A DNA stretch of 11,521 bases from Candidatus Bathyarchaeia archaeon (GTDB taxonomy: Archaea; Thermoproteota; Bathyarchaeia; Bathyarchaeales; Bathycorpusculaceae): the NCBI GenBank assembly GCA_038882655.1, contig JAVZNT010000022.1:1-11521 (forward strand), read 5' to 3'. A program made the translations under genes and the position numbers. The notes under the pieces are model-generated. The model made no database searches. It was not told where the DNA came from and was given only the letters and a program-made list of their open reading frames with translations. Below are positions 3 to 11,521 of this stretch, piece by piece. Position 1 is the stretch's first letter. The number at the start of each line of letters is the position of its first letter.

Positions 3-968
3 AGGATGGCCAAGAAGCTCGGCGCCAAGGAGGTTATAATTCTTTATAGGCGGTCCCGTGAGGAAATGCCAGCACTCCCACATGAGGTGGAACTTGCCGA
101 GAAAGATGGGATAAAGTTCTATTTCTTGGTGGCCCCCAAACAGATTATAGGCGAGAATGGAAGGGTTAAGGCTGTTGAATGTCAAAGAATGCGTTTAGGC
201 GAGCCTGACGAGAGCGGAAGAAGGCGCCCAATCCCAATTGCCTTTTCAGAACATCAATACGAGGTGGACATGGTTATTCCAGCTCTAGGGCAAGTTGTTG
301 AAACATCGGTTTTGCCACAAGAGCTTATAAGCAAGGAAAAGCGGGGACCGCCGTTGCAAGTGGACCCACTAACACTGGAAACCAATGTTCCGGGAGTTTT
401 CGCCGGTGGGGATGTTGCCACCGGTCCGGCAAGCATTATTGAGGCTGTTGGTGCTGGGAAGCGTGCAGCAGTTTCTATACACCATTACTTGAGGGGTGAG
501 GATTTGCGGAAGGATAGGGAAGAAGAGAAGATTGAGGAGACTACTTGGGTTAAGAATTGGCGATTGTTGGACAAAAAGGAGCGCAGATATGACGCGCCGA
601 TAGAGAAGCCTCACCTAAGTTTTGAAGAGGCGAGGGAGTATCTTGAAAAGCTTAAGCGTCAAGCCAGATTTGAGGCTTTCCGCTGTCTTGGATGTGGACC
701 ATGTGCAGAGTGTCTTGCCAGCATGGACCTATGCGAGGGCGATAAGGCTGTTGTTGACGAGAGTAAATGTGTGGGCTGCAATGTCTGCGCAGTCGTCTGC
801 CCAGTAGAAGCTATTAAAAAGAATGAGAAGGGTGTAGCCCAAGTAAATGAAGAGCTTTGCAAAGGCTGTGGGCTTTGTGCAGCACGTTGTCCAGAAAGAG
901 CCATAACAATGAAGAAGCTTTCCAACGAGCAAATTCTCACAATGGTTTTAACAGCCTTGGAAAGGTGA
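3..968 (+). CDS. 5'-truncated FAD/NAD(P)H oxidoreductase: GltD/NfnB/SudA-like domain followed by an HdrA-type C-terminal 2x[4Fe-4S] domain (HdrL-like fusion)
   Basis: The frame is open to the left edge (AGG at 3-5 precedes ATG 6), and RMAKKLGAKEVIILYRRSREEMPA is an internal GltD-family segment, so ATG 6 is probably not the start. It has the second FAD motif GVFAGGDVATGPASIIEAVGAGKRAA and the Cys-rich EAFRCLGCGPCAEC. Two ferredoxin motifs follow (CVGCNVCAVVCP, CKGCGLCAARCP), and the tail AITMKKLSNEQILTMV parallels the HdrA tail [16 protein letters not shown] in this window. Confidence 0.85.
   Translation, partial: RMAKKLGAKEVIILYRRSREEMPALPHEVELAEKDGIKFYFLVAPKQIIGENGRVKAVECQRMRLGEPDESGRRRPIPIAFSEHQYEVDMVIPALGQVVETSVLPQELISKEKRGPPLQVDPLTLETNVPGVFAGGDVATGPASIIEAVGAGKRAAVSIHHYLRGEDLRKDREEEKIEETTWVKNWRLLDKKERRYDAPIEKPHLSFEEAREYLEKLKRQARFEAFRCLGCGPCAECLASMDLCEGDKAVVDESKCVGCNVCAVVCPVEAIKKNEKGVAQVNEELCKGCGLCAARCPERAITMKKLSNEQILTMVLTALER
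963..968 (+). promoter_or_regulatory. Shine-Dalgarno AGGTGA for the ORF at 975, overlapping the upstream stop codon
   Basis: AGGTGA at 963-968 lies 6 nt before ATG 975 and matches the archaeal GGAGGTGA consensus. Confidence 0.7.
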
Positions 969-974
969 AATGAA

Positions 975-1721
975 ATGGAGTCTTCTAACCCGCCAAAAAT
1001 TGTTTGTTTCATGTGTAACTGGGCCTTCTGCGAGGAGGAGATGCGTGTTCCCTACAATGTTGACATTATCCGCGTTATGTGCGTCGGGAGGATGGACCCG
1101 ACGCTGGTTCTGGAAACCTTTGCTGATGGAGCTGAGGGCGTGCTACTTGTTGGGTGTAAGCCCCCAGACTGCCACTTTGTAGACGGAAATCTCCACACTG
1201 AACGCGCCGTTAAAATGTTGAAGAAATTATTAGCTTTGGCTGGACTTGAGCCAGAAAGATTAAAGCTCTTGTTGGTCTCGCCGTTGGAGGACAAAAGCTT
1301 CAGTCACTATGCCAAAGAGTTTTCTGAAGAAGTTTGGAAGCTTGGAAACTCTCCGCTCAGCAAGGAAGAAATTATAGCCAATCTTACAGCGGCTAAGGAG
1401 GCGGCTTCAGCCTTTAGACTTCGCGTTTTGCTGGGAAGGGAGGAAGAGCTAACCGAATTCATGAACGCTTATGGCGAGAAAATATCAGAAGAAGAGTTTG
1501 ACGCTTTATTGGATGATATTGTCAAGGCTGAGTTTATTCGCTATAAAATTCACTATTTGACGAGGACTAAACCTCGCTCCGTTAAGGAGTTAGCCCAAAT
1601 TCTCGGGATAAAGCCGTCTGCTGTGCTTCGGCATATAACGAACATGAGGCGGAAGGGCATGATAGCCCTCGACCATGTTGAGGGTTATACGCCTTTGTAT
1701 AAGGCTTTGGAGGTGCGATAG
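975..1721 (+). CDS. mvhD: MvhD-like [2Fe-2S] hydrogenase iron-sulfur subunit fused to a helical linker and a C-terminal winged helix-turn-helix domain
   Basis: The N-terminal ~128 aa align with the canonical MvhD at 4753: PKIVCFMCNW, RVMCVGRMDP, GAEGVLLVGCKPPDCHFVDGN, GLEPERL, KLGNSPL. The C-terminal SVKELAQILGIKPSAVLRHITNMRRKGMI plus a beta-wing-like tail fits the ArsR/HTH_11-like wHTH pattern. Confidence 0.85.
   Translation: MESSNPPKIVCFMCNWAFCEEEMRVPYNVDIIRVMCVGRMDPTLVLETFADGAEGVLLVGCKPPDCHFVDGNLHTERAVKMLKKLLALAGLEPERLKLLLVSPLEDKSFSHYAKEFSEEVWKLGNSPLSKEEIIANLTAAKEAASAFRLRVLLGREEELTEFMNAYGEKISEEEFDALLDDIVKAEFIRYKIHYLTRTKPRSVKELAQILGIKPSAVLRHITNMRRKGMIALDHVEGYTPLYKALEVR
1709..1715 (+). promoter_or_regulatory. 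Shine-Dalgarno GGAGGTG for hdrA (GTG start at 1724)
   Basis: GGAGGTG at 1709-1715 lies 8 nt upstream of GTG 1724. Confidence 0.75.
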
Positions 1722-1723
1722 AA

Positions 1724-4700
1724 GTGGCTGAAGGTAAGGTTGGCGCAGTTCTCGTTGTCGGCGGCGGTGTTGCTGGAATACAAGCTGCTTTGGATTTGGC
1801 GGATTCTGGCTTTAAAGTGTATATGGTTGACCAGTCGCCAAGCATCGGCGGCGTCATGGCTCAGCTTGACAAGACTTTCCCAACAAACGATTGTTCCATG
1901 TGTATTCTGGCTCCTAAGCTTGTTGCCGCTGGACGGCATCCCAACATCTCGCTGATTACGAACAGCGAAGTGCTGGGCTTAAGCGGTGAAGCTGGAAACT
2001 TCGAAGTAAAGATTCGAAAACGCAGCCGCTACATAAACGAAGAAAAATGCAACGGCTGTGGGCTATGTGCACAAAAATGCCCAGTTGAAGCCATAGACAC
2101 CTACAACAAGGGCTTAACGGACAGAAGCGCAGTCTACGTGGAATTTCCGCAAGCGGTCCCATTACGCTTCAGGATAGACCGTGAAAAATGTATTGGTTGT
2201 AGGACATGCCAAGAGATTTGTAAGGCGAATGCCGTTGAATACGACCAAAAGGACAGCGAAATAATCCTCAACGTTGGCGCAGTGATTTTGGCTCCCGGCT
2301 TTGAGCCGTTTGACGCGCGGCTGAAAAGCGAGTATGGTTATGGACGGTATGCAAATGTTGTGACAAGCATAGAGTTCGAGCGCATTCTAAGCGCTTCTGG
2401 ACCATATGGCGGAATTGTTTTGAGGCCTTCGGACGGTGAGATTCCGCGGAAAATTGCCTTTGTTCAATGTGTTGGCTCTCGGGATGCTCAACTTGGGAAC
2501 AATTATTGTTCTGCGGCTTGTTGCATGTACAGCATTAAAGAAGCCATTATAGCCAAGGAGCACGTGCCAACAAAACTGGACTGCACGATTTTCTATATGG
2601 ATATAAGGGCTTATGGGAAGGAGTTTGACGACTATTACAAGCGTGCTCAAGAGGAGTATGGCATACGTTTTGTTCGTTCAAGGGTTGCAAGCATAACCGA
2701 AGACCCAGCTACTGGCAATTTGCTTGTTCATTATGTTGGCGAGGATGAAACTCCAAGAATTGAAGAGTTTGACATGGTTATATTGTCCACCGGGATGCAG
2801 CCGCCTAAAGACGTGGAGAAACTGGCTAAGGCTCTTGGAATAAAGCTTAACAAATACCGCTTCTGCGAAACCAACACCTTCACGCCCTTAGAAACTTCAA
2901 AATCCGGCGTATACGTTTGTGGAGCCTTCAACGCGCCAAAAGACATTCCGGAAAGTGTTGCCCAAGCAAGTGGCGCCGCAGCAAAAGCCATGGCAATAAT
3001 AGCCCCAGAACGTGGCAAGCTAATCACCGTTAAGGAGTATCCGCCTGAAAGGGACGTAAGCCAAGAGGAGCCACGCATAGGAGTTTTCATATGTCACTGT
3101 GGCATAAACATCGGCGGCATCGTGCGGGTTCCAGAAGTTGTTGAATATGCCAAGAAGCTTCCAAACGTTGTTTACGCTGAAGAAAACCTTTACACTTGTT
3201 CGGATGATACCCAAAAACGGATTAGGGAGAAGATTAAGGAGTACAACCTAAACCGTGTTGTTGTGGCTTCATGCACACCTAGAACTCATGAGCCGCTCTT
3301 CAGGGAGACTGCCCGAGAGGCTGGCTTAAACCCGTACCTATTTGAAATGGCAAACATCCGAGACCAGTGCAGCTGGGTACACATGCATGAGCCAGAAGAG
3401 GCTACAGAAAAGGCGAAGGACCTTGTCCGCTCCGTCGTCGCCAAGGCGAGGCTGCTGAAACCTTTGAAAAACCCAACAGTTAACGTCACCCCAGTAGCCC
3501 TTATTATTGGCGGTGGAGTTTCTGGAATGACTGCAGCGCTGGAACTAGCCAATCAAGGCTTCGAGGTTCACCTAGTAGAACGCGAGAAAGAGCTTGGCGG
3601 ACACTTAAGGAAAATCTATTACTTGCTTGAGGGTGAAGACCCGCAAAAGCACTTACAGAGGCTTGTTAAGGCTGTTATGGCGAACAAGCTTATCTACGTC
3701 TATTTGGGCGTAGAGGTTGTCGAGGTAAGCGGTTTTGTCGGCAACTTCAAGTCAAAAATAAGGCTGGACAGCGGTGAGGAAAAGGAAGTAGAACACGGCG
3801 TGGTTATTGTTGCAACTGGCGCCGTTGAGTACAAGCCAAAAGAGTATTTGTATGGCGTAGACCCCCGCGTTATGACCCAACACGAGTTAGAAGAGAAAAT
3901 AGCCAAAGGTGAATTCAAAGCTAAGAAATTTGTAATGATTCAATGTGTTGGCGCTAGAAACGAAGAGCGCCCCAACTGCGCGCGGATATGCTGTGGGCAA
4001 GCCATCAAAAACGCCTTAAAAATTAAGGAGTTAAACCCAGACGCTGACGTCTATGTTCTCTACAAGGATGTTAGAAGTTACGGCTTTAAGGAGGAGTACT
4101 ACCGTGAAGCAGCAGCCAAAGGCGTCATCTTCGTAAACTATTCTGATGAGAGAAAACCAAAAGTAACAAATGATGACGGGAAGCTGAAAGTAGCCTTCTA
4201 CGAGCCAGTGATAAAACAGGAAGTCCAGTTGGAGCCAGACTACGTCGTTTTAAGCGCTGCAACCATTCCGAATCCAGACAACAAGCGCATAGCCGAAATG
4301 CTAAAAGTGCCGCTGACAAAGGATGGCTTCTTCTTAGAAGCCCACATGAAGCTTCGCCCAGTGGACTTTCAAACAGACGGCGTTTTCCTATGCGGTATGG
4401 CTCATTCACCGAAATTCATTGATGAAAGCGTTTCCCAAGCGTGTGCAGCCGCAGCACGAGCGGCAACAATATTATCAAAGAAAGCCCTTGAAATGGAAGG
4501 AATTGTGGCAAGTGTGGATGAAGATTTATGTAGTGGATGCAGAATCTGTGAATTTCTATGCCCCTACGGCGCTATAGAAATGTTAGAGAAAAACGGCAAA
4601 ACAGTCGCACACGTGATTGAAGCCTTATGCAAGGGCTGCGGCGTATGCGGAACAGCATGCCCAACAAAAGCCATAACCCTCGGGCACTTCACTACAGAGG

Positions 4701-4756
4701 AAATCCTAGCCCAAGTTAGGGCAATATTGAAGGAGATGGAGGTGGCAGCCAAATGA
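1724..4756 (+). CDS. hdrA: Heterodisulfide reductase subunit A-like flavoprotein, tandem two-FAD type (1010 aa)
   Basis: Module 1: [21 protein letters not shown], inserted ferredoxin ([23 protein letters not shown]), EFER, QCVGSRD...[20 protein letters not shown]. Module 2: [47 protein letters not shown]...[16 protein letters not shown], and a C-terminal ferredoxin ([24 protein letters not shown]). Confidence 0.95.
4738..4744 (+). promoter_or_regulatory. Shine-Dalgarno GGAGGTG for mvhD
   Basis: GGAGGTG lies 8 nt before ATG 4753, whose ATGA overlaps the hdrA stop. Confidence 0.7.
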
Positions 4757-5193
4757 GCGAATCCCAAAAAGATTTTGAGCCAAAAATTGTTGGCTTTCTG
4801 TGTAACTGGTGTGCATATGCAGGTGCGGACTTAGCTGGTGTAAGCCGCATCCAATACCCGCCAAATATCCGTGTTATCCGTGTCATGTGCAGCGGCAGAA
4901 TAGACCCAGCTTTTATTCTTGAAGCTTTTAAAAATGGTGCTGACGGCGTTTTGGTGGCTGGCTGTCACCTGCCATCGGATTGCCACTATCTTAGTGGTAA
5001 TTTTAAGGCTTTGAGAAGGGTAACGCTATTAAAGAAGGTGCTTAAAGATTTTGGGATAGAACCTGAACGTGTGCGGCTGGAATGGGTCTCCGCCAGCGAG
5101 GGAGACAAATTCGCAGCCGTAGTCCGAGACATGGTTGAACAAATTAAGAAGCTTGGTCCAAACCCGTTGAAAATAGTGGAGGAGAAAAAATGA
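4753..5193 (+). CDS. mvhD: Methyl viologen-reducing hydrogenase delta subunit, [2Fe-2S] adaptor (canonical)
   Basis: Canonical motifs are present: [36 protein letters not shown]-x3-DCHY-x2-[21 protein letters not shown]. It overlaps hdrA by ATGA. Confidence 0.96.
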
Positions 5194-5759
5194 ATGAGAC
5201 AAAAAGTGAAGCCCGCGAATACGTTCCGCCAGTGATTAAGGCTGAGGAGCTTGACCCAAAGTTCAAGTATAAAATGAGCAAGATGCACGGCGCAGAAAAG
5301 GTGATGGTTTGCTTCCAGTGTGGAACATGCACAGCCGACTGCCCCATCGCAAGATTCAGCGAGTTTTACCGTCCACGCAGAATAGCCCGCATGGTTCAGC
5401 TAGGCTTGAAGGATAGGCTTTTACTGGACAAAGCTTTGTGGCTTTGTTCGTCATGCTTCACGTGTGTGGACCACTGTCCCCAAGGTGTGGAAATTGCAGG
5501 CATAGTTCGCGTTTTGCGGAACATGGCGGTGGCAGACAAAACCATTCTCCCACTGGTCTACAAGGAGTTAGCCACAAACCTCATGAAAAGCGGCTTTGTA
5601 TACGAGATTCCGGAATCAAGGCTTCAAAAACGGGTTGAGCAGGGATTGCCACCACTGCCTAAGCCAAACGTGAAAGAGGTTATGAAAATTTTTGAGGTTA
5701 CTGGCTCTGCGAGTTTGCTTGAGAAAGTTCAAACTATCGCAAAGGTGGAGAGCAGATGA
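5190..5759 (+). CDS. hdrC: Heterodisulfide reductase subunit C (2x[4Fe-4S])
   Basis: [12 protein letters not shown] and [18 protein letters not shown] motifs, plus [11 protein letters not shown] and LRNMA. It sits directly before hdrB, with GGAGG at 5178-5182 and an ATGA overlap. Confidence 0.93.
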
Positions 5760-6634
5760 GCAACCCAAAATATTTGTTGTTTCCAGGATGTGTAATCCCA
5801 TATAGGCTTTCAAGCTACGAAATATCTGCCAGAAAAGTGCTTGCCAAACTCGATGTGGAAATCGTTGAGATGCCAGAATACAACTGTTGTGGCTATCCAA
5901 TGGACGTTATAAACCATGACTTAATGCTGACGCTGGCGGCGAGAAACCTCTGCATAGCAGAAAAATTGGGCTTACCAATAATGGCGCTCTGCAACGGATG
6001 CTTCTGCAGCCTAAATGAAACCAACAAGATCCTAAAAGAGGACAAGAAGCTCCGCGAGAAGATTAACGGCTATTTGAAAGAGGTTAGCATGGAGTTTAAA
6101 GGCACAATAGAAGTTAAACATCTAATCTATGTGCTTTCAGAGGACGTGGGATACGAAAAGATAAAGAACGCCGTCAAAAAGCCTTTGGCTGGTGTCCGTG
6201 TAGCTCAACACAGCGGATGCCACGTTTTAAGACCCCGCAAATATGTGGGACGCGATGACCCAGAAAACCCAACAACACTTAAGGAGTTGATTAGGCTGAC
6301 AGGTGCCGAATGCCTAGACTATATGGATGAAACTGAGTGCTGCGGAAACCCAATAATTGGCGTTAATGAGGACGTGCCTTTCCAGATGGCTAAGGAGAAA
6401 CTTGACCACGTGCGGGCTGTGGGTGCCCAAGCGCTTGTAACTTGTTGTCCCTTCTGCCACATAATGTTCGACCTAAACCAACCCCGTATAGAAAGAGCCT
6501 TCAACGAAAAATTCAACATGCCAGTCCTCCACTACCCCCAGCTTCTAGGCTTAGCCATGGGCTTCTCGCCAGAAGAATTAGCCCTAAACGAGCTTAGAGT
6601 AAAACCAACAGAATTGTTAAACCGAATTAAATAG
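5756..6634 (+). CDS. hdrB: Heterodisulfide reductase subunit B (two CCG domains, non-cubane [4Fe-4S])
   Basis: Domain 1: FPGC, NCCG, LCNGC. Domain 2: HSGCH, ECCG, CCPFC. Also AARNL, QLLGLAMG and an ATGA overlap with hdrC. Confidence 0.95.
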   Translation: MSNPKYLLFPGCVIPYRLSSYEISARKVLAKLDVEIVEMPEYNCCGYPMDVINHDLMLTLAARNLCIAEKLGLPIMALCNGCFCSLNETNKILKEDKKLREKINGYLKEVSMEFKGTIEVKHLIYVLSEDVGYEKIKNAVKKPLAGVRVAQHSGCHVLRPRKYVGRDDPENPTTLKELIRLTGAECLDYMDETECCGNPIIGVNEDVPFQMAKEKLDHVRAVGAQALVTCCPFCHIMFDLNQPRIERAFNEKFNMPVLHYPQLLGLAMGFSPEELALNELRVKPTELLNRIK

Positions 6635-6645
6635 GTGTGAATTAT

Positions 6646-7629
6646 ATGGCAAAACAAAAATTGAAATTCGCCTTTTACTGGGCTGCAAGCTGTGGCGGAT
6701 GCGAAATCGCCGTCTTAGACATTAACGAGAAAATCTTGGATGTAGTACAAATTGCTGATATCGTGTTTTGGCCTGTTGCCATGGACATAAAATATAAAGA
6801 TGTTGAAGCCATGCCAGACAAATACATTGATGTATGCTTCTTTAATGGCGGAATCCGCAATAGCGAACAAGAGTATATGGCGAAACTTTTAAGGCAGAAG
6901 GCAAAAATCCTTGTAGCTTATGGTGCTTGTGCACATCTCGGCGGCGTTCCCGGGTTGGCTAATCTCCACAATAAGAAGGAAATCTTCGAACAAGTTTACG
7001 CTAAAACATTCTCAACAGATAACTCCAACAAGGTTTTCCCACAGCCGAAGGTGCATGTTAAAGAGGGCGAATTGGAGATTCCAGAGTTCTACGACACCGT
7101 GCGAACTCTAGACCAATCAGTGGATGTCGACTATTATGTTCCGGGCTGTCCGCCAGCGGTGGAGCGCACAATATTCGCTTTAGAAGCCGTAGCTAAAGGC
7201 GAGCTACCGCCGAAGGGCTCTGTTTTGGCGCCGTTAAAGTCTGTTTGTGACGAGTGCCCCAAAAAGAAGGAGAACAAGAAGATATCACGGATATACCGCG
7301 TCTACGAGAAGGCTCCAGACCCCGAAAAGTGCCTACTCGAGCAAGGCATTATATGCATGGGGCCAGCCACAAGGGGCGGATGTAGCGCCAGATGCTTGAA
7401 GGCTGACATGCCCTGCACCGGTTGTGGCGGACCATGTCCAAACGCTCCGGAGCAAGGCGCCGCCATGATAAGCGCTTTAGCCTCAATTCTTGGCTTAGAG
7501 GAGGAGAAGGAGAAATACACCGAGGAAGAAGTTGAAAAGCTTATAGACCAGATTAAGGATCCTGTTGGAACTTTCTACATGTATGGTTTACCAGCCTCAA
7601 TTTTGCGGAGGAAGGTGATTCGCACATGA
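6646..7629 (+). CDS. mvhG: Group 3c [NiFe]-hydrogenase small subunit
   Basis: ASCGGCE, YGACA, VPGCPP, SVCDECP, CLLEQGIICMGPAT, GGCSARC, PCTGCGGP. I place the start at ATG 6646 because AGGTGTGA (6633-6640) is an RBS that overlaps the GTG at 6637. Confidence 0.94.
   Translation: MAKQKLKFAFYWAASCGGCEIAVLDINEKILDVVQIADIVFWPVAMDIKYKDVEAMPDKYIDVCFFNGGIRNSEQEYMAKLLRQKAKILVAYGACAHLGGVPGLANLHNKKEIFEQVYAKTFSTDNSNKVFPQPKVHVKEGELEIPEFYDTVRTLDQSVDVDYYVPGCPPAVERTIFALEAVAKGELPPKGSVLAPLKSVCDECPKKKENKKISRIYRVYEKAPDPEKCLLEQGIICMGPATRGGCSARCLKADMPCTGCGGPCPNAPEQGAAMISALASILGLEEEKEKYTEEEVEKLIDQIKDPVGTFYMYGLPASILRRKVIRT
7613..7619 (+). promoter_or_regulatory. Shine-Dalgarno AGGTGAT for mvhA
   Basis: AGGTGAT lies 6 nt upstream of ATG 7626, whose ATGA overlaps the mvhG stop. 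Confidence 0.7.
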
Positions 7630-9080
7630 AAGAAATAATCATAGACCCAATAACAAGGCTTGAGGGTCACGGTAAAATAGCCATATTCCTAAACGATGCT
7701 GGCGAGGTGGAAAACGCCTACCTGCAGATTCCAGAGCTTCGTGGCTTCGAGAAATTCTGTATTGGGCGCAAAGCCGAGGATATGCCGCTTTTAACCAGCA
7801 GAATTTGCGGCGTTTGTCCAGTGGCGCATCACATGGCTGGAACAAAAGCTTTGGATGCCGCCTTCAACGTGGAGCCGCCATCGGCAGCTAAAAAGCTTCG
7901 GGAACTAATGTACTGTGGCTACTACATTTACGACCACACACTTCACTTCTATTATTTGGGCGGACCAGACTTTGTTGTTGGTCCAGATGCACCGCCAGAG
8001 AAGCGTAATATTCTTGGGGTTATTGAGAAGGCTGGCCTGGATGTTGCTAAGGAAGTAATTAAGCATAGGGCTTATGGACAGAGGATAGTTGAGCTGATAG
8101 GCGGAAAAGCTACTCACCCAGTCTGCGGGTTGCCGGGCGGAGTATCTAAGCCTTTGAGCGAGGAGAACCGGCAGGAAATTGAGAAGATGGTGACTTCTGC
8201 TGTTGAGTTTGCAAAGTTTTCTTTGAAGCTTTTCCATGATATTGTTTTGAAGAACACCAAATATGTTGAGCTGATTAAGAGCGACGCCTACACCTTGCGC
8301 ACTTACTATATGGGTTTGGTGGACGAGCACAACAAAGTTAACTTTTACGATGGAAGAATACGGGTTGTAGACCTCAACGGCAAAGAATTTGCAAAGTTTG
8401 AGGCTAAGGACTATTTGGAGCACATCGCCGAGCATGTGGAGCCATGGACCTACGTGAAACAGCCATACTTAAAGAAGGTTGGCTGGAAAGGCTTTGTCGA
8501 CGGTCCTGAAAGCGGGGCTTACCGCGTCGGTCCGCTGGGAAGACTTAACGCTGCTGACGGAATGGCAACACCACTAGCCCAAGCTGAATACGAGTTCATG
8601 TATAAGACCTTGGGCGGGAAGCCAGTGCATTCTACGTTGGCTTATCATTGGGCTAGGCTTATTGAGTTGTTGTATGCAGCTGAAAGGGCTGTTGAGCTGG
8701 TCAAAGACCCAGAAATAACAAGCACGAATGTAAGGAACAAGCCTGGCAAGCCTGGCGAAGGCGTGGGCGTCGTCGAAGCTGCTAGGGGTACGCTGATTCA
8801 CCATTATGTCTTGGACGAGAACGCCTTAATCAAGGATGTCAACTTGATTGTGGCTACTGTTAACAATGCGCCTTCGATTAATATGTCTGTTCGAAATGCG
8901 GCTAAGGGCTTTATTCACGGAGGCAAAGTTGACCATGGCTTGCTTAACATGGTGGAGATGGCTTTTAGGGCTTATGACCCATGCTTTGGATGCGCAACCC
9001 ACTTTGCTGTTGGACAACTGCCACTGACCGTGGAAATCTATAACAGCGAAGGAAAGCTCATTAAAAAAGTGCAAAGATAA
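7626..9080 (+). CDS. mvhA: Group 3c [NiFe]-hydrogenase large subunit
   Basis: [20 protein letters not shown]1 motif [19 protein letters not shown], and L2 motif [12 protein letters not shown] followed by a 25-aa cleavable C-terminal extension. All four Ni ligands are Cys codons, so there is no Sec. The mvhD-hdr context supports group 3c. Confidence 0.96.
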
Positions 9081-9117: not shown

Positions 9118-9639
9118 TTGGCGCTGGAAGGTTCTTTCGAGAAGAAGTTGAGGGATTGGTTTTCCGGCGCTGAGAGGGTCGTTGTTGCTGGTATTGGTAG
9201 CCCTATTCGTATGGACGATTTTGTCGGTGTGAAGGTTGTCCGCGACTTGCAGGGTAAAGTTTCTGATAAGGTTTTGCTGATCGAATGTGAGACTGTTCCC
9301 GAAAGTTATCTTCAGCAGATAGCTGACTTTAAGCCGACACATGTCCTGCTTATTGACGCTGCTGTTATGGGCTTGGAGCCAGGCGAGTGTAGGCTTGTTA
9401 AGCCAGAGCACCTTCAAGTTTTCCCAGCCATTTCAACCCATATGCTTCCGCTGCGGGTGTTCTGTGACTACCTTGCCAAAACGGTGGGCGCAAAGATAGC
9501 TCTACTATTAATAGAGCCTAAAAACACGGATTTTGGTGAAGGCTTATCCCCGGAAATTGGCGAGGTTGAACAGAGGATTGTGAATTTTTTGCTGAAAATT
9601 CTTCCGTTAAACGGCAAACTTGTTGACGATATAATATAA
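9118..9639 (+). CDS. hycI: Hydrogenase maturation endopeptidase, HycI-like
   Basis: AGIGSPIRMDDFVG (variant of GxGNxxxxDDxxG), ECETVPES, LLIDAA, STHMLPL, FGEGLSPEI. TTG start with GGAG at 9106-9109, adjacent to mvhA. Confidence 0.9.
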   Translation: MALEGSFEKKLRDWFSGAERVVVAGIGSPIRMDDFVGVKVVRDLQGKVSDKVLLIECETVPESYLQQIADFKPTHVLLIDAAVMGLEPGECRLVKPEHLQVFPAISTHMLPLRVFCDYLAKTVGAKIALLLIEPKNTDFGEGLSPEIGEVEQRIVNFLLKILPLNGKLVDDII

Positions 9640-9657: not shown

Positions 9658-10167
9658 TTAGGTCGGCGGTGCCACTTTTAGGGCTTCTTGGAAAAGCTTC
9701 TTTGTTGCCGTTATGCGAGCCTTCTGTGCCAGAACATCAGCTGTGACAAGGTCTAAGGCTTCTTCTGGGCACCACTTGACGCATTGTGGTCCGTCTGGCT
9801 TGTCCTTGCACAAGTCACAGATAAAAACTACCTTCTTTTCCGGATGGAGTGAAACCGCTCCATAGTCGCAAGCTTCAATGCACCATCCGCAGCCGTTGCA
9901 CTTGTCCTCATCCACAATTATTGTGCCATTCTCATCCGACTGGGTTAGGGCATCTCTTGGACAGGCGGCAACGCAAGGCGGGTCCTCGCAAAGCCTACAC
10001 GTAATAGAAATGTTAACGAGCGGGTTAAGCCTAACAACCCTGATCCTTGATTTTAAAGGATTAAAAGTCTTCTCCTTATTCCATGCGCATATGTATTCAC
10101 AGACTTGGCAGCCAACACACTTGTCTGGGTCGGCTGAAACGAATTTTCTTTCATGAATCTTAACCAT
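9658..10167 (-). CDS. 4x[4Fe-4S] electron-transfer protein (DmsB/CooF/HydN family), probable AOR small subunit
   Basis: 16 Cys in four groups: CVGCQVCEYIC, CRLCEDPPCVAAC, CNGCGWCIEAC, CDLC...PQCVKWC. Also SRIRV. It lies 14 nt downstream of aor with a strong RBS. Confidence 0.92.
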   Translation of the reverse strand: MVKIHERKFVSADPDKCVGCQVCEYICAWNKEKTFNPLKSRIRVVRLNPLVNISITCRLCEDPPCVAACPRDALTQSDENGTIIVDEDKCNGCGWCIEACDYGAVSLHPEKKVVFICDLCKDKPDGPQCVKWCPEEALDLVTADVLAQKARITATKKLFQEALKVAPPT

Positions 10168-10170
10168 TCA

Positions 10171-10181
10171 TCACGCCTCCT
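10171..10181 (-). promoter_or_regulatory. Shine-Dalgarno AGGAGGCGTGA for the ferredoxin-like gene
   Basis: The minus strand reads TAG-AGGAGGCGTGATGA-ATG between the aor stop and ATG 10167. Confidence 0.75.
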
Positions 10182-11521
10182 CTAAGCTTTTTGGACCTTT
10201 GCCTCCACAATTTGGATTAGGTCATCCATGCCCAACTGCTTAAGTTTCTCAAGTGTTGGTATGCCATCCCTAGTCCATCCCCGCGCTTCATAATAGTCGT
10301 CTAACATCATTTCCAGCTCCTCTTGGGTAACAAAAGCGCCCTTGGATGGGCCCTCATCCGGAATTGGGCAGTGCATAACCTTATAGGGCAGATGGTCGTC
10401 CTTTCTGCCTAAGCCCTCTCGTACGTTTATGATTCTTGCAAGATTGTTTATCCGCTCGCCCTTAACCCGCATGTCTTCTGGTGTTGTTTCAAAGCCTGTC
10501 ACGAGTGTGTAAAGCTTCGCCAAATCCTCAAACTCCTTGTAGTATGTGCCTCTGGAGAACTTGCATATTATCAGCGAATCGATAATAGTGTAGACATCTT
10601 CAATATCCTTGACAGCCTTCGCCCTACCCTTCTCGTACTTCAGCCTGTTAAACTTGCCCTTAACGTCAAAGGCGTAGGCTCCATGCCTATTGTGGTCGGC
10701 TCCACGGAAGGAAACAGCAAAGCCCAAAGCCGCCGTTTTAAGGCATCTTAAGTCGTAACCGGTAACCTCAACACCTTTAATATGTAGGGCAAATTTCTCC
10801 GTGCCCTTGCCAATTTTTTCTGCGGCAAACTTGACACCTTCAGCCAGAATGTCGCCTATGCCTTCTCGTTTGCCAATCTTTTCGATAAGCTTCACTAACG
10901 CCTCATGGTTGCCAAAACGGGCTTCGATGCCGTCCATATCTTTAGCGGTTAATATGCCGTTTTCAAAGCAGTCCATGGCGAAACCAACAATTACACCAGC
11001 ACTGATGGAGTCTATGCCGTAATAATTGCAAAGCTCGCTGCCCTTGATAACGGCGTCGAGGCGGTCAACCCCACAATAAGGTCCCATAGCCCATAAAGGC
11101 TCATATTCAACCCTAGCCATAGCCCCTTTATACGGGCCTTCGGTGACAACGCACACGTGCTCGCATCTCATGGCGCATGAGCTGCAGCCAATGATTTTCG
11201 CCACGTACCTCTCGTTCAAGTATTCGCCGCTAACTTTTTCCGCAGCCTCAAAATGGGCGTTATTATAGTTGCGAGTTGGCATGCAGTGCAAGGCGTTATG
11301 CACTAGAACGTTTTCAGGCGTGCCTAGTGTTCGGTACTTCTTTGTGGCTGGGCCCTTCATCCTCTCGTGAAATTCCTTAACAAACTCTAGGAACTCGTCC
11401 GGCTTCGCAACCGTAACATCACGCGTTCCACGGATAGCAACGGCCTTCAAATTCTTTGAACCCATAACAGCCCCAAGCCCACATCTGCCAGCAGCCCTCG
11501 ACTTCTCATTGATTATGCACG
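10182..11521 (-). CDS. aor: Tungstopterin aldehyde:ferredoxin oxidoreductase family protein (5' end outside the window)
   Basis: The frame stays open beyond 11465 to the edge, reading CIINEKSRAAGRCGLGAV-MGSKNLKA, a conserved AOR-family motif. Also the [4Fe-4S] motif CSSCAMRC with the distal DSLIICKF, plus EYE, GIDSIS, REGIGDILAEG, GYDLR, RGADH and YYEARGW...GIP. Confidence 0.93.
   Translation of the reverse strand, partial: CIINEKSRAAGRCGLGAVMGSKNLKAVAIRGTRDVTVAKPDEFLEFVKEFHERMKGPATKKYRTLGTPENVLVHNALHCMPTRNYNNAHFEAAEKVSGEYLNERYVAKIIGCSSCAMRCEHVCVVTEGPYKGAMARVEYEPLWAMGPYCGVDRLDAVIKGSELCNYYGIDSISAGVIVGFAMDCFENGILTAKDMDGIEARFGNHEALVKLIEKIGKREGIGDILAEGVKFAAEKIGKGTEKFALHIKGVEVTGYDLRCLKTAALGFAVSFRGADHNRHGAYAFDVKGKFNRLKYEKGRAKAVKDIEDVYTIIDSLIICKFSRGTYYKEFEDLAKLYTLVTGFETTPEDMRVKGERINNLARIINVREGLGRKDDHLPYKVMHCPIPDEGPSKGAFVTQEELEMMLDDYYEARGWTRDGIPTLEKLKQLGMDDLIQIVEAKVQKA

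Follow-up and report, generated by a model that had tools for sequence, protein, structure and literature searches.

The window, that is, the whole stretch of DNA analysed, comprises 11,521 nt at positions 1 to 11,521 of contig JAVZNT010000022.1 (assembly GCA_038882655.1) of a Candidatus Bathyarchaeia archaeon. It begins at base 1 of its contig, and its first gene is cut at the 5' end. The subject is the open reading frame (ORF) at 975..1721 (+), with an ATG start and 248 aa plus stop, designated here long MvhD; it is present just as an earlier note, made from the sequence alone, describes it. Long MvhD lies 6 nt behind the gene of a GltD/NfnB-like NAD(P)H flavoprotein (3..968, +; 3' part, 321 aa) that carries a C-terminal HdrA-type 2x[4Fe-4S] ferredoxin domain (HdrA2 profile positions 571-641, E 8.4e-16), and 2 nt ahead of the gene of a fused double HdrA, HdrAA (1724..4756, +; 1010 aa; HdrA2 profile 1057.8 bits in three stretches), with two FAD-binding sites and a C-terminal ferredoxin domain. 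A separate, ordinary MvhD of 146 aa with canonical CNWC follows at 4753..5193 (+; FlpD E 1.4e-57), as the note had also recorded. Long MvhD is read as an adaptor subunit of a multi-module heterodisulfide-reductase-type complex and not as a transcription factor, with a probability of about 0.72.

The N-terminal half is MvhD-like, as proposed earlier. Residues 9-124 (999..1346, +) form an MvhD/FlpD [2Fe-2S]-type domain with a remodelled N-terminal motif, matched by Pfam FlpD (PF02662) at E 1.1e-32 and 113.1 bits (cut-off 22.3) with profile positions 1-123 covered. By sequence search, PDB chain 5odc_D (MvhD) matches residues 6-131 (E 6.5e-24). The AlphaFold2 monomer model, built on 43 homologues, has a predicted local distance difference test score (pLDDT) of 93.1 and a predicted template modelling score (pTM) of 0.90. 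Compared by fold, 5odc_D is matched with Foldseek E 1.1e-9, template modelling (TM) score on target 0.80 and root-mean-square deviation (rmsd) 2.5 over 137 columns.

The C-terminal tail ends in a winged helix-turn-helix (wHTH), and this claim of the note is borne out by Pfam, the AlphaFold2 model, Foldseek and VIA-align; a missing wHTH fold match, by which the note would have been overturned, is not what was found. Residues 194-231 match HTH_5 (25.2 bits, cut-off 22) and HTH_24 (24.8 bits, cut-off 21.9). Sequence similarity of the tail to winged-helix regulators is weak (HTH_5, HTH_20; PH1932, E 0.008), and the NCBIfam full-family model HTH_metalloreg gives 24.5 bits, its cut-off of 55 not being reached. 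Modelled tail helices are at residues 131-144, 147-161, 172-198, 203-210 and 214-226, and strands at 230-236 and 239-244. The wHTH proper (1581..1706, +; residues 203-244) is delimited by HTH_5/HTH_24 and the fold matches, and consists of helix 203-210, 'recognition' helix 214-226 and beta-hairpin wing 230-244. Similar folds in Foldseek are the ArsR/SmtB-type winged helices 3cuo_C, 3jth_A, 4omz_C and 1r23_A (E 5e-3 to 1.3e-2, probability 1.00, TM on target 0.5-0.59). VIA-align superposes 1ku9_B on residues 129-248 with Z 9.1 and an rmsd of 2.3 over 85 aligned positions, and 2cwe_A on residues 145-248 with Z 8.9; winged helices that do not bind DNA (ESCRT-II, cullin, RPC62) score just slightly lower.

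The region between the two domains had been described as an acidic linker. No loose linker is present. The three-helix part of the tail (1365..1568, +; residues 131-198), placed by the AlphaFold2 helices and by conservation, holds the tail's best-conserved motif, an RxR...G...L...N-x-Y-G-E stretch at residues 148-168 with its loop at nt 1461-1481 (+); the best-conserved tail residues are R148, R150, G154, L159, N164, Y166 and E168. Residues 125-248 alone were searched against 1.84 billion representatives at E<=1e-3. The search gave 195 matches, nearly all aligned over query positions ~8-122, i.e. over linker and winged helix together. The helical 'linker' and the wHTH are a single conserved module of ~110 aa. 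Near-length homologues of long MvhD number 571, the 120 listed spanning 218-260 aa, and about 60 species-level bathyarchaeal genomes carry the MvhD-tail architecture; on account of these numbers, MvhD plus winged helix is no chance fusion.

By size, carriers of the tail fall into four classes: MvhD proteins of ~250 aa, short proteins (110-130 aa), a small number of intermediate length (300-800 aa), and giants of 1227-1737 aa. A Pfam scan covered 20 of the 150 listed carriers (the longer ones). The FlpD domain ends 1-17 residues before the module in 19 of these 20, the exception being P0137. In the giant P0250, an HdrA unit (2-593) is followed by MvhD (598-720), the module (737-838), an HdrA-like N-terminal half (876-1021), a GltD-like insertion (1023-1543) and more HdrA. 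This domain order is colinear with the window operon, and the insertion is 39% identical to the operon's GltD-like protein (E 1e-106). The module is likewise internal in P0238 and P0266, of similar architecture. A DNA-binding switch midway in a redox polyprotein of 1737 aa is unlikely.

Some seemingly N-terminally short carriers are truncated calls, with cluster mates of 257-259 aa and a canonical MvhD motif. The idea that such carriers are selenoproteins cut at TGA was dropped, the full-length cluster mates showing ordinary CNWC. At L112:568-915, L120:8418-8771 and L128:8418-8768 an MvhD ORF of plain length is followed, 1 nt on, by the module as an ORF of its own; these split forms, which may be true split genes or frameshifts, are a divergent subgroup without the N-x-Y-G-E loop, and in L112 a second module-like ORF stands behind the first. 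Further MvhD-domain matches in the window's own genome lie at G000:C11:29152-29487 and G000:C2:20077-20436, inside long frames of 802 aa and 859 aa respectively, a single in-frame TAG lying in the second; they are presumably HdrA::MvhD fusions. At these further loci of the genome the tail is unmatched, and query residues 6-133 alone align.

For gene order, ORFs were called in the window, in 64 bathyarchaeal genome loci (L007-L070) and in 80 metagenome loci. The genes of MvhD, the module (by a hidden Markov model of the module alignment), HdrAA, GltD, HdrB/C and MvhA/G were marked, and the neighbours of every MvhD ORF were tallied. Among bathyarchaeal copies, module-bearing MvhD (n=63) is followed by HdrAA in 61 cases and by a contig end in 2; plain MvhD (n=52) is followed by HdrC (48), another gene (1), a gene on the opposite strand (1) or a contig end (2), and by HdrAA in no case. 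Thus HdrAA is next after MvhD in 61/61 determinable module-bearing cases versus 0/50 plain ones. Metagenome module-bearing copies (n=48) are followed by HdrAA (29), other genes (8), the opposite strand (3), HdrC (1), a second module ORF (1) or contig ends (6); seven of the 8 other genes encode NuoE-like thioredoxin-like [2Fe-2S] ferredoxins (PF01257). Metagenome plain copies (n=56) are followed by HdrC (15), MvhG (13), HdrAA (7), other genes (7), the opposite strand (3), a far gene (1), MvhD (1) or contig ends (9). The determinable metagenome cases stand at 29/42 versus 7/47. Fisher's test on these (29/13 vs 7/40) gives p = 3e-7, to be read with kinship in mind, few evolutionary events lying behind the counts. 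Ahead of plain and long MvhD alike stands a protein with an HdrA-type ferredoxin domain at its end; it is therefore the following redox module that marks the long form.

In three bathyarchaeal operons (L053, L056, L064) two long MvhD genes are present, each ahead of its own HdrAA. Two copies per operon are natural for a subunit and odd for a regulator. Gene order there is GltD-ferredoxin (GltD-Fd), long MvhD, HdrAA, long MvhD, HdrAA. The second long MvhD of these operons is 47-50% identical and has canonical CNWC. Shorter GltD-like genes also occur in two-copy operons, e.g. of 426 aa (L053) and 378 aa (L056).

The two halves of the protein vary with different neighbours. Aligned to 5odc_D, long MvhD shows CNWAFC in the position of the canonical CNWC, followed by the deletion of a 7-residue loop. 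In its clade, residues 11-19 (within 975-1060) read CFMCNWAFC, with three cysteines. Four of the five canonical invariant MvhD cysteines (CNWC, MCSG, GC, DCH) align, namely C14, C36, C61 and C66; within the family no variation is seen at C14 or C61, and conservation of C36 and C66 is at least 90%. Nine relatives from the same clade have CNW.FS, with the second cysteine gone. Of 51 determinable copies behind a GltD-Fd gene, 50 have a remodelled motif in place of CNWC (41 with CNW..C, 9 without the second cysteine); behind an HdrAA gene the motif is canonical in 37 of 38, the lone exception being an ORF-extension artefact. Within single operons (L053, L056) the first long MvhD is remodelled and the second canonical. 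The N-terminal cysteine motif of MvhD is correlated with the kind of protein encoded upstream. In the tail, the N-x-Y/F-G-E loop occurs in 29/29 HdrAA-followed versus 0/7 NuoE-followed metagenome modules, and in 58 of 62 bathyarchaeal modules. The cysteine motif thus tracks the upstream gene and the tail loop the downstream gene, from which it is concluded that the MvhD domain follows the upstream protein and the tail the downstream one.

The preferred adaptor mechanism would run as follows. The MvhD domain would sit on the HdrA-type ferredoxin domain of the upstream GltD/NfnB-like NAD(P)H flavoprotein and relay single electrons through its iron-sulfur site, where the remodelled domain (CNWAFC) may still bind a cluster. 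The ~110-aa module, with its three helices, N-x-Y-G-E loop and winged helix, would be a protein-protein docking arm that clamps the input module onto the next redox unit, most likely the HdrAA encoded 2 nt downstream. The same HdrAA would further bear HdrBC and the ordinary MvhD together with the MvhAG hydrogenase. What the operon encodes would in this way be a single core having an NAD(P)H arm and an H2 arm for input or output. The mechanism is modelled on the solved Mvh-Hdr and Vhu-Hdr complexes, with BamF as a second analogy. In the consulted part of the Hdr-Vhu-Fwd structure paper, VhuD helps to bind alternative input modules to HdrA, and two different ones can be bound at once. Docking of MvhD on the upstream flavoprotein, already suggested in the note, is supported by the HdrA-type 2x[4Fe-4S] end of ORF 3-968 and by the cysteine motif that co-varies with the upstream gene. 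The note's own fallback, a wHTH serving purely as a structural docking module, is now the best-supported reading.

The reverse arrangement, with the tail clamping the upstream GltD-like flavoprotein and the MvhD domain facing HdrAA, is unlikely, although it is the strongest of the alternatives. It agrees with the GltD-like segment lying C-terminal of the module in the fusion proteins and with a GltD-Fd gene directly upstream in 56 of the 63 bathyarchaeal module-bearing copies. However, the upstream protein varies family-wide (HdrAA, HdrA with GltD insertion, GltD-Fd), and downstream HdrAA is the constant neighbour; in the fusions an HdrA-like N-terminal half stands directly behind the module and the GltD part is inserted further on; and it is the MvhD-domain motif, rather than the tail, that changes with the upstream protein.

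Alternatively, the tail might have no intermolecular role and fold against its own MvhD domain, serving as spacer or stabilising cap, e.g. replacing the MvhG contacts made on ordinary MvhD, so that the MvhD domain does all partner binding. The pTM of 0.90, by which the tail is predicted to hold a fixed position relative to the MvhD domain, would suit such a cap, as would the best-conserved residues, located in the helical part near the domain junction. Co-variation of the tail loop with the downstream partner speaks otherwise, as do the tails found as separate ORFs beside MvhD (L112, L120, L128) and as ~110-130 aa stand-alone proteins. The BamF wHTH, moreover, reportedly contacts another subunit (below). 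The cap is held to be rather improbable.

The nearest described counterpart is BamF. According to the consulted part of a 2026 preprint (bioRxiv 10.64898/2026.04.10.717634), the class II benzoyl-CoA reductase BamBCDEFGHI of Geobacter metallireducens unites an aldehyde:ferredoxin oxidoreductase (AOR)-type unit, a double HdrA and a long MvhD. In its account BamE is the fused HdrA dimer; BamF is the adaptor, homologous to MvhD but exceeding other MvhD proteins by more than 100 aa; the winged helix-turn-helix of BamF contacts subunit BamI; and disulfide chemistry is carried out by a cysteine close to the cluster of MvhD, its place being taken in BamF by selenocysteine. Apart from this preprint, no account of such a tail on MvhD turned up in full-text literature searches, whose scope did not extend to supplements or to most subscription journals. 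Nor were residue-level [2Fe-2S] ligands of MvhD found in the published papers searched, as far as their consulted parts extend.

Bam-like clusters occur among the metagenome loci. L111 has the order HdrAA, MvhD-module protein (255 aa), NuoE-like protein (150 aa), NuoF-like plus GltD-like protein (1029 aa) and a 204-aa protein carrying 2Fe-2S and 4Fe-4S motifs; this arrangement is bamEFGHI-like. Its MvhD-module protein aligns to window residues 7-233 (33% identity, E 2e-42), and its tail matches the module profile with 97% probability in hhalign. The likeness of the window protein to BamF is fourfold: an MvhD domain with an extension of >100 aa ending in a winged helix-turn-helix; a gene directly behind a fused double HdrA (BamE) or a protein with the same terminal ferredoxin domain; a place between an NAD(P)H-type input module and an HdrA-type core; and homology of the bam-like metagenome MvhD-module proteins to the window protein across both halves. 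It differs in its neighbours, a GltD-like flavoprotein (5') and HdrAA (3') as against the NuoE/F-like BamGH and BamI; in the N-x-Y-G-E loop of its tail, which BamF-like tails lack; and in the remodelled region (CNWAFC) corresponding to that of the BamF selenocysteine near the cluster. The window protein is accordingly regarded as a GltD-linked variant of the BamF-type long MvhD adaptor. The NCBIfam match of the nearby AOR-family gene (below) gives no support for calling the window system a benzoyl-CoA reductase.

Several points weigh against the adaptor reading. The contact of the tail with a protein, the identity of the protein contacted and the direction of electron flow are deduced indirectly. 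The second cysteine of CNWC is A17 in long MvhD, with C19 two residues later; the lost residue may be the one to which the preprint ascribes disulfide chemistry. The BamF analogy may be partial, BamF-like tails being without the N-x-Y-G-E loop, and the comparison was made through bam-like metagenome loci standing in for the Geobacter BamF sequence. Gene-order and motif associations reflect few old events with many descendants, i.e. few independent trials, because module-bearing MvhD falls mostly into one group and module-label changes are at minimum 7. Of the 210 distinct MvhD domains placed in a tree, 107 bear the module, and 101 of these form one group (support 90 in the Shimodaira-Hasegawa approximate likelihood-ratio test, SH-aLRT). 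Within it the BamF-like set is one clade of 9 (SH-aLRT 96), and the GltD-linked set including the window is one clade of 56 (98), nested among HdrAA-linked forms; 4 of the 7 label changes are forced by well-supported branches. Finally, the winged helix is a genuine ArsR/MarR-like one, its best structural neighbours are DNA-binding proteins, and in bathyarchaeal and many HdrAA-linked forms the recognition helix, RHITNMRRKG, is basic (+3 to +5) and well conserved and the wHTH has a net charge of +4 to +10, which would also fit DNA binding.

The note had proposed a redox-sensing transcription regulator: the [2Fe-2S] domain would read the redox state of the flavoprotein and the winged helix would bind an operator, as in a trigger enzyme, controlling the operon perhaps when long MvhD is released from the complex. 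An ArsR/MarR-like fold with HTH_5 and HTH_24 above their Pfam cut-offs, a basic and clade-conserved recognition helix and wing, and a second, ordinary MvhD in the same operon are in its favour; JGI automatic names of the type '.../predicted transcriptional regulator' do no more than restate the HTH match. Against it, the module, in the cases examined, is seen in MvhD contexts (19/20 carriers, and split forms 1 nt behind an MvhD ORF), is internal in polyproteins of 1227-1737 aa, and tracks the downstream redox module. The gene is mid-operon with spacers of 2-6 nt and in some operons is present twice. Overall the protein is acidic, its three parts having net charges of -5, -7 and +8 (+8 for residues 190-248). 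Homologues occur in bam-like clusters, where, to judge from the consulted part of the preprint, the BamF wHTH reportedly contacts BamI. The headline claim of the note is not supported, and a regulator is considered improbable.

Conservation of the recognition helix, which the note proposed to map, gives a divided result: the helix is conserved in the bathyarchaeal clade, but its exposed residues vary across the family. Exposed positions 219, 223 and 225-227 vary, whereas buried V203, A207, V217 and L224, together with P240, are conserved; distant members have a neutral or acidic helix 3 (range -2 to +5). In the tally of helix-3 charge by partner class the helix was located in 19 of 29 HdrAA-followed and 2 of 7 NuoE-followed modules, and class means are not used. 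A dimerisation helix after the wing (alpha5) defines the ArsR/SmtB family. In the AlphaFold2 model this C-terminal helix is missing: no helix follows residue 244, and the chain ends 4 residues past the second wing strand. Taken as a whole, the note's domain call and the docking of MvhD on the upstream flavoprotein stand, and its transcription-regulator reading does not. DNA binding as a second job has a very small chance: in the bathyarchaeal GltD-linked clade the freed docking arm may also bind DNA via RHITNMRRKG and tune the hdr/mvh operon, upon disassembly of the complex or when the NAD(P)H arm is unengaged, in a trigger-enzyme switch from electron-transfer adaptor.

The ArsR/SmtB and MarR factors (3cuo, HlyU 3jth, SmtB 1r23, MJ 1ku9, PH1932 2cwe) share their fold with window residues ~180-248. 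Unlike them, the window domain has no helix after the wing and is always fused or adjacent to MvhD, and no metal-sensing or ligand sites were identified in it. Canonical MvhD/VhuD of MvhAGD-HdrABC (PDB 5odc chain D) shares fold and family with residues 9-124 and has, according to the solved structures, the adaptor role proposed here, joining an input module to the C-terminal ferredoxin domain of HdrA. It differs in being ~130-146 aa long and tail-less, and in being followed by hdrC/B or mvhG/A rather than hdrAA; the long copy of the window, on its side, is without the second CNWC cysteine and the 7-residue loop. HdrA::MvhD fusions (HdrA2 of Methanosarcina, NCBIfam NF040770) show a ferredoxin domain and then MvhD, as at the window boundary 968/975. 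HdrL/HdrA-NfnB fusions (Desulfobacterium autotrophicum, PMC2702500; ANME-1 HdrA9-11, PMC9012536) have GltD/NfnB-like NAD(P)H modules on HdrA-type cores, and the consulted parts of these two papers contain no mention of a winged-helix module. In contrast to the HdrA fusions, the GltD-like unit of the window is a separate protein that keeps the HdrA-type ferredoxin domain alone.

For annotation, winged-helix matches on MvhD already yield automatic names such as 'predicted transcriptional regulator' and 'ArsR family regulator'; in the long MvhD family such a match more likely flags a structural docking arm. As a family rule, the tail on MvhD seems to flag an adaptor coupling an HdrA-type core to a further, non-hydrogenase redox module, which may be a second HdrAA, a module like NuoEF or one for NAD(P)H of GltD-like type. 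From the operon a complex is predicted in which a single fused HdrA dimer would be the meeting point of NAD(P)H, H2, probably ferredoxin and, with HdrBC, a substrate of disulfide type. The predicted complex bears on energy conservation in the abundant, uncultured Bathyarchaeia of sediments and hot springs.

The remaining genes of the operon are on the + strand: HdrC at 5190-5759 (Fer4_8 match), HdrB at 5756-6634 (two CCG domains), the MvhG-like small subunit of a [NiFe] hydrogenase at 6637-7629 (Oxidored_q6), the MvhA-like large subunit at 7626-9080 (NiFeSe_Hases) and a hydrogenase maturation protease at 9118..9639 (HycI, E 7.4e-15). Overlaps of 4 nt occur between HdrAA and MvhD, MvhD and HdrC, and HdrC and HdrB. 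As to expression, no RNA data set is listed as containing the sequence; two runs labelled metatranscriptomic, though probably of DNA, contain 0.30 and 0.09 of the sampled words. Convergent to the operon, an AOR-family gene and a gene of a 169-aa poly-ferredoxin occupy 9658-11519 (-). In two relatives, at L029:599-2453 and L034:563-2417, AOR-family and poly-ferredoxin genes lie upstream, on the operon's own strand. The nearby AOR is not assigned as a BamB; its NCBIfam match is weak, to a generic aldehyde ferredoxin oxidoreductase, and far under the cut-off. The GltD-like protein in its full-length form is known from L008 (580 aa, 98% identical), where it scores 522.8 with NCBIfam PRK12771, 'NAD(P)-binding protein' (cut-off 516). 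Directly 5' of that gene, at L008:3562-4152 (+), is a gene for a 196-aa protein. This protein has a glycine-cleavage H/lipoyl-carrier domain (E 2.8e-30), and its N-terminus matches a ribbon-helix-helix weakly (E 7.6e-4, cut-off not reached). The pairing of a lipoyl carrier with an Hdr-type operon is reminiscent of sulfur-oxidising Hdr-like systems and their lipoate-binding proteins.

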